From IMG/VR virus record IMGVR_UViG_2529293249_000005: a stretch of 14,532 bases of DNA. One strand, given 5' to 3'. The translations under genes and the position numbers were made by a program. Source of the stretch: a virus. Lineage: Duplodnaviria > Heunggongvirae > Uroviricota > Caudoviricetes. This document shows, in pieces, positions 5,155 through 12,005 of this stretch (the stretch's first letter is position 1; every line of letters begins with the position of its first letter). The notes beneath the pieces were generated by a model that did not search any database, had not been told where the DNA came from, and saw nothing but the letters and a program-made list of their open reading frames with translations.

Positions 5155-5361
5155 TCAACTCACAAAACGCCACGCCATTTTTGCTACAGCGACAGGCATA
5201 ACACCGATAATCACCCAGACAAATGCAGCGCCAAACAACGTATACCATGGATCTTTACCGTCATTCACAAGGCGAATGTAGCTATGCAGAACAATAAAAA
5301 ACGTCAGAAGAATCCATCCAACGCCAACGCATTTGAGTGCGACGAGCATAAACTCAGCCAC
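5155..5361 (-). CDS. Small membrane protein (two predicted transmembrane helices)
   Basis: 68-aa ORF with a GTG start at 5361 and GGAG 8 nt upstream. Two hydrophobic stretches (VALKCVGVGWILLTFFIVL and LFGAAFVWVIIGVMPVAV). First gene after the tR2-like terminator. Confidence 0.45.
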   Translation of the reverse strand: MAEFMLVALKCVGVGWILLTFFIVLHSYIRLVNDGKDPWYTLFGAAFVWVIIGVMPVAVAKMAWRFVS

Positions 5362-5437: not shown

Positions 5438-7318
5438 TTAATACTCCGTCACGTTTTCCTGTCGCCACGCCTCGTCATATTCCGATTTCGGCATATTGGC
5501 GATGTAGCTATATGGCGATCCTGATTCAAGTTGCAGGAACTGGTGCGATTGCTCGTCAAGGAACAACGGGACACCACCTTCCCAACCTTCGCCGTTACGT
5601 TGTTTTTCAAGCATCAAAACAGATGCCGGAGATGCCAGTAGCTGTTCGTCCTTCTCTGACATCTTTTCACCACTCTGAACTCTCTGTAACGCTCTCTCGC
5701 GAGCCTTGTTACGCCAGATGATGAAAAGGTTGTCTGTCAGGTCTGTTATCGCTCCAGAGCCTTTTACGTCCATTTTCCCGGTTGGTTTTTCTTCGCTATC
5801 TCCTTTTCTGGAGTGAGTAACGAGAATGACGTGGGAGTTTGTTTTGTTTTTGAAGTCACAAATCGAGTCAACAAATGCTTTCTGCCCGTTATAGTCATCG
5901 TCACCTATGCCGCATTTCATCAGGCTGTCGATGATGAATAACTGGATGCCGTATCGGCGGCGAGCGTAGTCGAATATTTCGATCAGCCTGTCGGCTTTCG
6001 CCGTTCCGGTCAGGCCAAACACCCAAAGTCTTTCGTCATAAAATTTAAATGCAGAGTCAATTTCCAGCACTGGCGGCATCTTGCAGCACGTCGCCTGACG
6101 GGTAAGGCGCTTAAGGAGAATACCAGGCTTCAGCTCAAGTGACGCGATGCACGTCTTCACACCCTGACGCATTGCCTCAAGTGCCATATGCCCGACAACC
6201 TCCGTTTTTCCGTGACCGTTCACACCATTGACCAGCGTCAACTCTGCCTCACGGAACTGGAATTTATCTGCCAGAGATTCCCACGGTGGATTAAACAGAT
6301 ACTGCTGCTTGCCGTAGAAAGCGTTGATAGTGTCCTGGTAAAACTCTCGCGCACTGTAGAGTTCTTCAGGATCGAAGTAGGATGCCGTGCCGATGTACTG
6401 CCAGATTTCATCCTCGGTAACACCGTTCATCAGGCATTCGTTGATGTCTTTGTACGGCAGAGTAACAAGACGGCAACGATGTTCACCGAGTCGGCTTGCG
6501 ATTTCCCTTGCGGCTTCACGACCAACATCATCAACGTCCATCGAGATGAATATTTCCTCAAACCTGTCGAGGTTGTGATACTCAAACTCAATCCACTGTT
6601 GCTTAGCGCCTTTCCCGCCACCAAACGGCACGGATAACGCCGAGATGCCGTATTGCGCATAGCTCATACAATCAATTTCGCCTTCGCAAAGTACAACCGC
6701 CCTCACGCCAGCGTCCAGAGCCTGCCATCCAAACAGACAAGGTTCGCAATCACCTTCTGCCATAATGACTTTCTTCCCGTCCGGTCGCTCAGTGCTGATT
6801 CGCTTGACCTGCAACAACTCACCATCGCGTTTGTACGGAAGCACCAGTGCATCAAGTTCTCGTTCTCCATTCCACACCTTGCCGCTGACAACCTCGTAGC
6901 GCTTTACGACTTCTGGCGATATGCCACGCGATTGCAGGTACTCAAGATGGGATTCTGTTCTGGTAACGTAGCGGGCGATTTTCTTGCGGTCAGGTCTGGA
7001 GAATTTCTTCTCACGTTTGGCATCGAAATGGTGATCGTCATCCTTGATTCCGAGAAAGGCTTTCGCTTCCTGCATAGCCTGATGCAGGTTAATTCCACGA
7101 CATGCCATCCACAAATCAAGCATGTCACCGCCGTCTCCCTCAGCGAAATCAGCCCATTTTTTCTTGCCGCTAAGGTTGACCTTAAGGCTGTTTCCCTTGT
7201 CACCGTTGACGTTACCGGCAACCCACTCATGCCCCTCTTTCTTGCCGTTTGGCAACAGGTGCGGAGCCACCCTGTCAACCTGCGCCCAAAGCAGGTCACT
7301 GAGTTCACTTGGAGTCAT
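5438..7318 (-). CDS. Bifunctional replication protein: toprim primase fused to DnaB/RepA-family helicase (T7 gp4-like architecture)
   Basis: 626-aa ORF. Toprim signatures (VVLCEGEIDCMSYAQYG, ISMDVDDVG), then Walker A (LVNGVNGHGKTEVV) and Walker B (QLFIIDSLMKCG). GAGGG precedes the ATG at 7318. Occupies the lambda P position but is not P. Confidence 0.8.
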   Translation of the reverse strand: MTPSELSDLLWAQVDRVAPHLLPNGKKEGHEWVAGNVNGDKGNSLKVNLSGKKKWADFAEGDGGDMLDLWMACRGINLHQAMQEAKAFLGIKDDDHHFDAKREKKFSRPDRKKIARYVTRTESHLEYLQSRGISPEVVKRYEVVSGKVWNGERELDALVLPYKRDGELLQVKRISTERPDGKKVIMAEGDCEPCLFGWQALDAGVRAVVLCEGEIDCMSYAQYGISALSVPFGGGKGAKQQWIEFEYHNLDRFEEIFISMDVDDVGREAAREIASRLGEHRCRLVTLPYKDINECLMNGVTEDEIWQYIGTASYFDPEELYSAREFYQDTINAFYGKQQYLFNPPWESLADKFQFREAELTLVNGVNGHGKTEVVGHMALEAMRQGVKTCIASLELKPGILLKRLTRQATCCKMPPVLEIDSAFKFYDERLWVFGLTGTAKADRLIEIFDYARRRYGIQLFIIDSLMKCGIGDDDYNGQKAFVDSICDFKNKTNSHVILVTHSRKGDSEEKPTGKMDVKGSGAITDLTDNLFIIWRNKARERALQRVQSGEKMSEKDEQLLASPASVLMLEKQRNGEGWEGGVPLFLDEQSHQFLQLESGSPYSYIANMPKSEYDEAWRQENVTEY

Positions 7319-8857: not shown

Positions 8858-10210
<1,353 letters not shown>

Positions 10211-10670: not shown

Positions 10671-10997
10671 ATGGATGCACAAGCACGCCGCCGCGAACGT
10701 CGCGCAGAGAAACAGGCTCAATGGAAAGCAGCAAATCCCCTGTTGGTTGGGGTAAGCGCAAAACCAGTTAACCGCCCTATTCTCTCGCTGAATCGCAAAC
10801 CGAAATCACGAGTAGAAAGCGCACTGAATCCGATAGACCTTACGGTGCTGGCTGAATACCACGAACAGATTGAAAGCAACCTGCAACGTATTGAGCGCAA
10901 GAATCAGCGCACATGGTACAGCAAGCCACGCAGTGAAATGGGTGTGACTTGTGTTGGTCGCCAGAAAATGAAATTAGGCAGCAAACCACTTATTTGA
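10671..10997 (+). CDS. N: Antiterminator N (lambda type)
   Basis: 108-aa ORF MDAQARRRERRAEKQAQWKAANPLLVGVSAKPVNRPILSLNRKPKSRVESALNPIDLTVLAEYHEQIESNLQRIERKNQRTWYSKP..., near-identical to lambda N as I recall it. AGGAGA precedes the ATG. Confidence 0.95.
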   Translation: MDAQARRRERRAEKQAQWKAANPLLVGVSAKPVNRPILSLNRKPKSRVESALNPIDLTVLAEYHEQIESNLQRIERKNQRTWYSKPRSEMGVTCVGRQKMKLGSKPLI

Positions 10998-11005
10998 GGT
11001 GATAT

Positions 11006-11257
11006 ATGGAATTTCATGAAAGTGCGATTTGTGATTTTCGCGCTAACGCAAATTCAGTAAAACCACAGCCAATTGCAGTTCTTTTTAAAACAATGGGGGC
11101 GTGGGCTGTTTTATGCTTCGCCGCTGACGACACTGACGCAAGAATGGCAATAGGCCAAGAGATGGAGATGGACCCGACAAACGATGAATTCATAATTTAT
11201 GGCGCTCCATCTAATTACTTACTTGATACCTGCAACATTTACAACAAGGCTGCCTGA
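11006..11257 (+). CDS. Hypothetical acidic protein (83 aa) immediately downstream of N
   Basis: ATG at 11006 lies 9 nt after the N stop, with GAGGTG 4 nt upstream. No recognisable family. Only the C-terminal NKAA resembles the end of lambda Ral, which I judge too weak to call. Confidence 0.55.
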   Translation: MEFHESAICDFRANANSVKPQPIAVLFKTMGAWAVLCFAADDTDARMAIGQEMEMDPTNDEFIIYGAPSNYLLDTCNIYNKAA

Positions 11258-11316
11258 TGGTGGCCTTTATTTTTTGGCCGTAAATAATTTCATGCTTATT
11301 ACAATCAAGGGGATAT

Positions 11317-11766
11317 ATGGAAGAACAAGCAAACAAGATTCTCGTAGAACTACTGCAAAAAGCCAGCAATGGAATAGACATGGCTGTTTCATTCAGCCAG
11401 GCGCAGATTCCTGATGTTGTTCATCAGTTGCTGCTATGGAATATGGTTGACAGTCTGATTAAAACATTAATAGCCATTCTAACAATCCCACTGGTTTTCT
11501 GGTTTATGAAGAAGCAGTGCCGAAGAGTTGAGACAGGTAAAATCGGTGATGAAGGATATTCATGGGAGAAGGGAAATCCCAAATACAGGCCGACAATGGT
11601 TTGGGATAGCAAAGGTGATATTAATCTTCTTATCATGCCATTAGTTGTAGTTTTGGCTCTGTGGGGGATTTTTATTATTAGTGCAGTAACCAATATGACA
11701 TGGTTAAAAATTTTGCTGGCTCCAAAGCTTTACCTTATCGAATATGCAGCATCATTGGTTAAGTAA
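11317..11766 (+). CDS. Membrane protein with two transmembrane helices (possible superinfection-exclusion protein)
   Basis: 149-aa ORF with AAGGGG before the ATG. Hydrophobic helices LIKTLIAILTIPLVFWFM and INLLIMPLVVVLALWGIFIISAVT. In the sieB/ral slot of the PL operon. The functional guess is from position only. Confidence 0.55.
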   Translation: MEEQANKILVELLQKASNGIDMAVSFSQAQIPDVVHQLLLWNMVDSLIKTLIAILTIPLVFWFMKKQCRRVETGKIGDEGYSWEKGNPKYRPTMVWDSKGDINLLIMPLVVVLALWGIFIISAVTNMTWLKILLAPKLYLIEYAASLVK

Positions 11767-11770
11767 TTTC

Positions 11771-11797
11771 AGGCCGCATAGTCGGCCTTTATTTTTG
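11771..11797 (+). terminator. Intrinsic terminator after the membrane-protein gene
   Basis: AGGCCG-catagt-CGGCCT hairpin (11771..11789) followed by TTTATTTTT. Confidence 0.6.
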
Positions 11798-11823
11798 GCA
11801 TAAACAACAGAATAAACACTGCA

Positions 11824-11855
11824 CTGTGTATTCATTCCAACGAGTGAATACACGG
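11824..11855. repeat. Perfect inverted repeat / strong hairpin between two terminators
   Basis: GTGTATTCA (11826..11834), 10-nt loop, TGAATACAC (11845..11853), extendable to an 11-bp stem with flanking bases. No T-run follows on the plus strand. Confidence 0.5.
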
Positions 11856-11915: not shown

Positions 11916-11940
11916 GCCCTCCAGTGTGAGGGCCTTTTTA
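11916..11940 (+). terminator. Intrinsic terminator upstream of cIII
   Basis: GCCCTC-cagtgt-GAGGGC hairpin (11916..11933) followed by CTTTTT. Confidence 0.55.
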
Positions 11941-12005
11941 TATGCATACCAATAACGCTTCACTTGAGGCGTTTTCGTTATGCAATCAAACAGAAGGAGC
12001 ATCCT

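Follow-up and report, generated by a model that had tools for sequence, protein, structure and literature searches.

When a small acidic protein and a small membrane protein are encoded side by side in a region of a lambdoid phage noted for exclusion functions, do their genes form a single system, or are they neighbors by accident? This question is raised by a stretch of phage DNA of 14,532 nucleotides (nt) from IMG/VR (record IMGVR_UViG_2529293249_000005; the entire stretch is termed ‘the window’ below), which is a lambdoid prophage 100% identical to E. coli DETEC-E601. Directly downstream of its antiterminator gene N are found two such genes, here named orf83 and orf149 after the 83 and 149 amino acids that they encode; the orf149 allele of the window is termed ‘allele A’. 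A sequence-only reading of the locus had described them as a two-gene cassette, with the layout of a toxin-antitoxin or abortive-infection module. The comparative analysis described here leads elsewhere: the two are very probably independent of each other. They would be unrelated accessory genes of the lambdoid early-left (pL) operon, each mobile on its own, whose proximity in this genome is accidental. The features concerned, in window coordinates, are as follows.

10671..10997, plus strand: antiterminator N of the lambda type (Pfam N36 at 3e-25; phrog_271), with its TGA at 10995-10997.
10986..11005, plus strand: boundary sequence CCACTTATTTGAGGTGATAT, comprising the end of N, its TGA and the Shine-Dalgarno sequence of the next gene.
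11006..11257, plus strand: orf83, an acidic early-left gene (phrog_2471; identical to VT2-Sakai orf20 and Gally gp31).
11246-11267 (hairpin; to 11275 with its tail), plus strand: intrinsic ral-type terminator between the genes, with a 9-bp stem, a 4-nt loop and a tail (UUUAUUUUUU / TATTTTTT; -13.9 kcal/mol, z = -2.3).
11262-11274 (left) and 11784-11796 (right), plus strand: 13-nt direct repeat GGCCTTTATTTTT, its copies 522 bp apart, bounding the orf149 module.
11274-11279 (TTGGCC) and 11297-11302 (TATTAC), plus strand: weak sigma-70-like match with a 17-nt spacer.
11317..11766, plus strand: orf149, encoding a two-helix inner-membrane protein (phrog_3054; the family of Sf6 gp34, Gally gp30, HF4s gp37 and phi92 gp220).
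11771..11798, plus strand: intrinsic terminator closing the orf149 module (hairpin at 11771-11788 and a T tract; -9.7 kcal/mol).

Both genes are real and conserved, and are more than chance open reading frames (ORFs), because each matches a family of the PHROG collection from end to end and evolves under purifying selection, as seen from its ratio of nonsynonymous to synonymous substitution rates (dN/dS). The product of orf83 matches phrog_2471 at E = 1.4e-61 over 83/83 positions, and that of orf149 matches phrog_3054 at E = 1.6e-62 over 137/137 positions; dN/dS is 0.08-0.14 for orf83 (measured against relatives in Citrobacter and Klebsiella prophages) and 0.23 overall for orf149 (53 distinct allele sequences). 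Both thus fall in catalogued, uncharacterised families (each annotated ‘unknown function’) that are already present in well-known phages. Much of what had been read from the sequence regarding the individual genes was borne out. The 83-codon frame is present and its product is acidic (isoelectric point 4.24, with 12 D/E against 5 K/R); its ATG is located 9 nt past the TGA of N, preceded by a GAGGTG Shine-Dalgarno sequence that overlaps that stop, in agreement with the strong ribosome-binding site described there; the 149-residue product contains two hydrophobic helices (approximately residues 38-63 and 103-125); a hairpin and T tract at 11771-11788 do close the unit; and the genes do occupy the sieB/ral hot spot within the early-left operon, with orf83 in the sieB-ral interval of lambda.

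The proposed pairing of the two genes fared differently. Across 5,426 complete E. coli genomes (at a query coverage of >=80%, with a probe of 321 nt for the junction), orf83 is present in 400, the orf149 allele of the window in 130 and the junction between them in 23, corresponding to 6% of orf83 carriers and 18% of allele-A carriers. The gene immediately upstream of allele A in 78 usable IMG/VR contigs is of the N type in 32 (with an N-type gene further off in 10 more), ral in 14, sieB on the other strand in 8, orf83 in only 5 and a gene resembling Sf6 gp36 in 4-5. Each gene is also found alone in known phages, virulent ones included. Thus, orf83 (found in 56 phage records, which include VT2-Sakai, where it is orf20, other phages encoding Shiga toxin (Stx) of the Stx2 type, mEp234, HK106 and HK633) mostly lacks the membrane gene, as in VT2-Sakai, mEp234 and HK106, and the membrane gene occurs without orf83 in HF4s (directly after N), Sf6 (gp34, after ral) and SPN9CC (beside a bona fide sieB). 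The families themselves differ more than 20-fold in size: that of orf83 is narrow (19-22 clusters, all enterobacterial, to which a second, profile-based search for relatives added only four more clusters and no annotation), whereas that of orf149 is very large, counting 465 close clusters or, when sequences are reduced to 50% identity and matches accepted at E <= 1e-3, 2,584 representatives.

The transcriptional anatomy of the locus agrees with these counts. A strong intrinsic terminator, absent from the sequence-only description, straddles the stop codon of orf83; no separate promoter serves orf83, which is coupled to N. Because of that terminator, the anatomy does not make orf83 and orf149 one transcription unit. 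PADLOC-DB contains no family that matches either protein (0 families for both), and in RNA sequencing of LF82, a lysogen of the related phage Gally, the homologues of both genes were found at prophage background in stationary phase in lysogeny broth (LB) (PMC9928086). The idea that orf83 and orf149 constitute one lysogen-expressed exclusion module of the abortive-infection or toxin-antitoxin kind, in which a soluble regulator controls a membrane effector, draws on their adjacency on the same strand in an exclusion hot spot, on the combination of a small, acidic, probably soluble product with a small membrane product, and on the recurrence of the pair in Gally/LF82 and in the 23 E. coli genomes. 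Against the terminator, the rarity of the junction, the disparity in family size, the many phages with one gene only, the absence of a PADLOC match and the background-level expression of both genes in the Gally lysogen in LB stationary phase, it is very improbable, and the distribution alone has already largely refuted it. The arrangement is ordinary lambdoid mosaicism: that a small, presumed soluble protein and a small membrane protein stand side by side in a defense hot spot does not, in this case, amount to evidence for a two-gene system, attractive as that inference may be.

The mosaic joints are visible in comparisons with lambda and VT2-Sakai, in which the ral/orf83 terminator runs directly into the sequence found downstream of orf149 in the window. 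Relative to those two phages the window carries a 522-bp insertion that consists of a leader, orf149 and a terminator, with a copy of the 13-nt repeat at either end; a single copy of GGCCTTTATTTTT marks the empty site in both lambda and VT2-Sakai. The intergenic hairpin is the same as that found after ral in Sf6 and nearly identical to that found after ral in lambda, and the terminator at 11771 is kept behind all members of the family in lambdoid phages (the homologous site is annotated as tL2A in the Sf6 record). Two E. coli prophages correspond to lambda plus the insertion, with the order cI-rexA-rexB-N-sieB-ral-orf149-ea10-cIII-kil-gam-bet and an orf149 that is 99.6% identical; therefore orf149 has been added to sieB and ral rather than serving as an alternative to them, and it is co-resident there with rexAB as well. 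It would thus represent a 522-bp single-gene module, equipped with its own terminator and inserted into the ral terminator. In this respect it resembles the ‘morons’ of lambdoid phages (the HK97/HK022 concept, exemplified by bor and lom of lambda): it comprises a single gene and a terminator, is carried as a discrete insertion by some genomes and missing from others that are otherwise collinear, is AT-richer than its surroundings (39% GC as compared with 46-50% in the flanks) and is placed at a terminator with a 13-nt repeat. It differs from them in that its promoter is weak and often missing, its expression in a lysogen is low and dependent upon conditions, and its kin are found in operons of virulent phages.

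The question of a promoter deserves separate consideration, as one had been proposed within the 59-nt gap between the two genes. The gap and the TTGGCC/17 nt/TATTAC arrangement are indeed present; the match, however, reaches only 8/12 of the consensus, was not reported by a consensus scan and would leave a leader of only ~7-9 nt. Among 77 allele-A loci a leader with TATTAC is found in 31 (where the -35 element reads TTGGCC in 16, TTGTCC in 14 and TTAGCC in 1) and is lacking in 46, many of which join orf149 straight to the end of N through CCACTTATTTGAGGTGATAT, the same boundary that precedes orf83 in the window. Since the leader is missing from so many loci, the promoter is not an intrinsic part of orf149. 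Lying between two terminators, the gene would be reached by N-antiterminated transcription, so that its expression would come mainly from pL read-through during lytic growth, with at most weak expression from the prophage. Expression timing, like membrane topology and every functional statement made here, is inferred; across the family as a whole, expression would fall within lytic development, early in lambdoid and virulent phages and late where the gene lies behind Rz.

Published data on Gally, which over 1,305 nt shares 97.3% identity with the window (100% in orf83 and ~95% in orf149), are informative on this point. The authors of the LF82 study scored Gally as free of morons in LB (PMC9928086). 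In conditions other than LB stationary phase, the orf149 homologue was ~8-12x as abundant as N, and still ~11-fold below the repressor: in condition B6 the log2 values were 7.1/7.0 for the orf149 homologue, 5.7/6.1 for that of orf83, 3.9/4.1 for N, 4.8/4.9 for the downstream gene and 10.5 for the repressor, and the orf149 homologue stood at a log2 of ~7.0 in B6, MB1 and MB6 (PMC9928086, S1/S4). This pattern is compatible with weak, condition-dependent, N-independent transcription, or with differences in mRNA stability. As a separate observation on the same source, its moron scoring was based on the LB stationary-phase data only, and GALLYPH_30, _31, _13, _14, _15 and _17 are well above background in the other four conditions (PMC9928086, S1).

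An unusual property of orf149 is the unequal conservation of its parts. Three alleles (window 11317-11766; Sf6 gp34, L003:2434-2856; SPN9CC_0015, L011:3001-3366), which encode proteins of 149, 140 and 121 residues, are 92-96% identical over their first ~120-135 nt and 78-88% identical over their last ~70 nt, whereas the central membrane hairpin is unalignable, with ~20% amino-acid identity and differing lengths. The same organization is seen in an alignment of 144 diverse members. Both ends are conserved, as an N-terminal helix (..LLxKAxxGxDxAVxFxQAQIPDVxxQLLxW) and an amphipathic C-terminal helix (WLKIWLAPKLYLIEYAASLVK); between them lie helix 1 and helix 2, joined by a loop of ~9-74 residues. 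Values of dN/dS follow this division (0.10 in the N-terminal 40 codons, 0.13 in helix 1, 0.25 in the loop, 0.75 in helix 2 and 0.09 in the C-terminal 23 codons), and so show purifying selection at either terminal helix, whereas selection on the hairpin is relaxed or diversifying. The family would thus combine an N-terminal helix of ~40 residues and an amphipathic C-terminal helix of ~21 residues, conserved on one side of the membrane, with a freely exchanged two-helix hairpin between them.

The family was found in 173 phage records, which include virulent phi92-like myoviruses (gp220), the N4-like phage FSL SP-058 and phages of Vibrio and Pseudomonas. In virulent phages its members belong to operons of the early or replication type, where they frequently come last; one Vibrio myovirus carries its copy antisense, between tail-completion and head-closure genes. 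A set of 38 bacterial loci, drawn from species-representative genomes of gamma- and beta-proteobacteria, displays only two recurrent types of upstream neighbor, the Rz/Rz1 spanin (11) and antiterminators of the N/Nun type (~5), and no recurrent downstream neighbor family. Because of the missing downstream neighbor and the occurrence in virulent phages, orf149 is seen to be a stand-alone membrane protein without a conserved partner. In a side observation, a distant relative sits in an uninformative array of small hypothetical genes. The loci with an upstream spanin gene are listed here.

Bacterial genome loci L029-L032, L034, L038, L040, L043, L046, L049 and L019: family gene positioned behind Rz.

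Comparison with characterized systems has provided no homologue. The sequence-only reading had suggested a resemblance to SieB, and the resemblances are genuine enough: the location just downstream of N, the small size, the two N-proximal hydrophobic helices and the status of an accessory gene. However, orf149 displays no match to PF14163 at E <= 1 (the SieB controls from lambda and P22 score 1e-29), the hhalign probability is 0.3%, and SieB proteins searched with a hidden Markov model (HMM) of the orf149 family yield E >= 0.14. In addition, sieB lies on the strand opposite N in lambda, P22, SPN9CC and CE0007a, against pL, and the P22 record shows a mapped promoter for it as well as an internal Esc start, whereas orf149 is co-oriented with N and runs along pL; SieB possesses a soluble C-terminal domain of ~100 residues where orf149 has only a C-terminal helix of 21; and the two genes coexist in the same prophages. 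The suggestion was accordingly dropped. P22 gp17 (PF17420), which bears an exclusion-related annotation, holds the equivalent place in that no further gene separates it from the terminator upstream of c3, but it is a soluble, acidic protein of 103 residues unrelated to orf83 or orf149. More broadly, the orf149 family HMM produced no match in P22 gp17, SieA, SieB, ea10, Ral or Sf6 gp33/gp36, and literature searches with PHROG identifiers, locus tags and related terms found no functional study of either gene.

Searches by domain and by fold were equally unproductive. A Pfam scan of the 144 members returned scattered chance matches to unrelated membrane families, each in <=5 members, and no match to the holin, antiholin or T4 Imm families, both statements applying to the 25 most frequent of 86 listed families; as a control, the window's own holin matches PF05106. 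A profile search of PDB sequences gave a best E no better than 0.6, and all hits were generic helical membrane segments. The AlphaFold model of orf149 is all-helical and of low confidence (predicted local distance difference test, pLDDT, 63); a fold search with it recovered only uncharacterised homologues in BFVD and nothing in the PDB. As the AlphaFold models are poor (63, and 52 for orf83), these fold searches were given little weight.

What, then, might orf149 do? The best guess is that of a stand-alone inner-membrane protein acting in lytic growth. One proposal has the protein acting unaided in the inner membrane of an infected cell, where, like T4 Imm, it would provide envelope-level protection or superinfection exclusion; this is the favored functional model, reached by analogy with T4 Imm (PF14373), P22 SieA and HK97 gp15, which are likewise small, stand-alone, early-expressed inner-membrane phage proteins, and from which orf149 differs in its lack of sequence similarity to them. 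Such a role is put forward tentatively, as a possibility rather than an expectation; a single blended judgment that covers gene independence and the exclusion or protection role together comes down narrowly on the favorable side. Several observations weigh against this interpretation or leave parts of it loose. No homology ties orf149 to exclusion, and the family lacks a match in Pfam, PADLOC, NCBIfam or the PDB, whether by sequence or by fold, on top of the low pLDDT of its model. The charges are ambiguous with regard to topology: acidic residues outnumber basic ones in the N-terminus of the family (825 D/E against 276 K/R), basic residues are in excess in the stretch of eight that follows helix 1 (282 against 68) and the C-terminal helix is mildly net basic, a distribution that suggests an N-terminus facing outward and a cytoplasmic loop, although the ‘positive-inside’ rule is not decisive here. 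In 11/38 loci the family gene is the last of a holin-endolysin-spanin cassette, in most cases overlapping the spanin gene or separated from it by 4-7 nt (the spacing is looser in three), a position that points to a late, lysis-related role and not to exclusion. With respect to independence, the co-occurrence of orf83 and orf149 is rare but not zero, and a facultative interaction would be compatible with the counts.

The lysis cassette is the sole recurrent functional neighbor of the family, with the gene positioned after Rz/Rz1 and behind endolysin and holin, and it invites the view that orf149 is a regulator of lysis timing (antiholin-like or envelope-stabilizing), affecting the moment or the manner in which the inner membrane is breached. 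The two-helix build and size, at ~110-150 residues, recall small lysis regulators such as N4 gp62 (PMC12642591), class II holins or antiholins and P21 S, and a hypervariable hairpin is what would be expected of a partner of a holin; in addition, the family gene closes a lysis cassette in a third of the bacterial-genome loci. Even so, this role appears unlikely. There is no homology to those proteins and no Pfam holin match among the members scanned (0/144, for the 25 most frequent of the 86 families listed), orf149 has a long conserved N-terminal helix that they lack, and in lambdoid and virulent phages the gene is found in early operons far from lysis genes. The same allele (99.6% nucleotide identity) is accompanied by a lambda S-type holin (PF05106) in the window and by a P21 S-type pinholin (PF04971), of an unrelated family, in CE0007a and S1-CAM-02-A. 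A holin-matched antiholin was rejected on that ground; N4 gp62 (PMC12642591) is a different gene from orf149. A further contender is a true moron, in which orf149 would be transcribed from its own prophage promoter as a conversion or exclusion gene that protects the lysogen, functionally similar to SieB or SieA. The order of promoter-like leader, gene and terminator, the insertion relative to lambda, the log2 of ~7.0 for the Gally homologue in B6, MB1 and MB6 (with N at ~4.0 and the downstream gene at ~4.85 in B6) and the antisense gene of the Vibrio myovirus all speak for it. The weakness of the promoter match (8/12, with a leader of ~8 nt), its absence from 46/77 allele-A loci, the scoring of Gally as without a moron in LB, expression ~11-fold below the repressor and the presence of homologues in strictly virulent phages, which cannot act in lysogens, render it quite improbable.

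A more ambitious model can be formulated for the family as a whole. It might constitute a previously unrecognised, widespread class of phage inner-membrane effectors, in which a conserved juxtamembrane module of N- and C-terminal helices blocks the entry of superinfecting DNA or gates lysis, and the swapped hairpin sets specificity or permits escape; this is speculative, and the odds are judged to be against it. If correct, the intragenic exchange of cassettes would be the trace of an arms race between phages. In any event, this very large uncharacterised family, found in phages of gamma- and beta-proteobacteria, provides a useful if modest lead. It recurs at two defined positions, behind N and behind the Rz spanin, and joins conserved ends to a hairpin that is exchanged. 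Members are present in easily manipulated model phages (Sf6 gp34, lambda-like E. coli prophages, Gally and phi92), and to learn what the family does would be to annotate thousands of phage genes in a single step.

The history of orf83 is different. The gene fills exactly the sieB-ral interval of lambda, and its last four codons (NKAA), stop and terminator are held in common with ral; the end of the gene and the hairpin that follows are those of ral in Sf6, and nearly so in lambda. From this ral-like ending it follows that orf83 replaces the sieB-ral interval exactly. At its other end, the last ~60 nt of N travel with orf83, such that the same N 3' end precedes it in Gally, HK633 and VT2-Sakai despite differing N alleles. 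Relatives with 70-73% identity in Citrobacter and Klebsiella prophages are likewise located after N and are followed by other small genes, with no membrane partner. As a tentative best guess, the product would be a small protein, putatively soluble, aimed at the host or its defenses; residues 22-40 are borderline hydrophobic (1.68 in a 19-residue Kyte-Doolittle window). Searches of Pfam, NCBIfam and PADLOC gave no match. Since its translation is coupled to the end of N and it precedes the first terminator, orf83 would belong to the N-independent, immediate-early pL transcript, and its product would be made together with N. In HK633 (L005 3001-3676), a one-base difference has abolished the orf83 stop and generated an annotated fusion ORF of 129 residues, and all that is left of the membrane gene is a C-terminal remnant of 58 residues from an allele of the SPN9CC type. 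The two accessory genes are in decay in that phage.

Counter-defense genes are typically among the first to be expressed by a phage, Ocr of T7 being an example. Could orf83, made at once with N, do the work of Ral, or that of some other anti-restriction or anti-defense protein? Its residence in the ral slot with the ral ending, its position ahead of the first terminator, its small and acidic product and the strong purifying selection upon it would all be in keeping with that role. The protein itself offers less encouragement: a profile search against Ral (PF11058) found no match (the lambda Ral control scores 1.6e-48), nor does orf83 resemble anything else beyond the joint; its charge, at 12 acidic residues in 83, is far from that of DNA mimics; and the common 3' end represents a recombination joint and not protein homology. 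In position, too, the likeness is incomplete, since orf83 is coupled directly to N whereas ral of lambda lies beyond sieB, and the viral contigs (some with an N-type gene, a gene resembling Sf6 gp36 and orf83, others with N and then ral) display no pattern of exchangeability. An analogue of Ral is on balance doubtful. The gene is nonetheless carried by Stx2 phages of E. coli O157:H7 (as VT2-Sakai orf20) and, as it would be made together with N, its target may matter for the induction biology of Stx phages.

The remainder of the window offers several further features. On the plus strand the order is repressor (which we take, from its sequence, to be of the phage 434 cI type), a 158-residue ORF, N of the lambda type, orf83, orf149, a terminator cluster, an arf-like gene, erf and ssb. 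An Rfam scan of the window returned no match. The cluster downstream of orf149 includes the following element.

11916..11973, plus strand: two further terminator-like hairpins, the first of them (11916-11933) upstream of ea10 in a segment that lambda also possesses.

Between the terminator of orf149 and these hairpins is an inverted repeat, TGTATTCA-N10-TGAATACA (window 11827-11852, plus strand), which is conserved in lambda, Sf6, HK633, VT2-Sakai, SPN9CC, Gally and HF4s. The 158-residue ORF (window 9734-10210, plus strand) is situated between the repressor and pL, in the slot of rexAB, and matches phrog_2651 (unknown function); an internal Met start is probable and would produce a signal-peptide-like N-terminus, and Sf6 gene 38 and HK633_047 appear to belong to the same type. 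For co-transcription with the repressor in a lysogen this ORF has a better position than either orf83 or orf149, and it is therefore a candidate exclusion or conversion gene. On the minus strand, an ORF of 170 residues (1025-1537) with HNH-like and AP2-like motifs, of the homing-endonuclease type, sits between a putative Q (1732-2250, an assignment that we presume) and a lambda-type holin S (247-570), which is the stx slot of Stx phages. Finally, a strongly hydrophobic ORF of 68 residues (5155-5361, minus strand) adjoins a 626-residue ORF at 5438-7318 that is presumably a primase/helicase.

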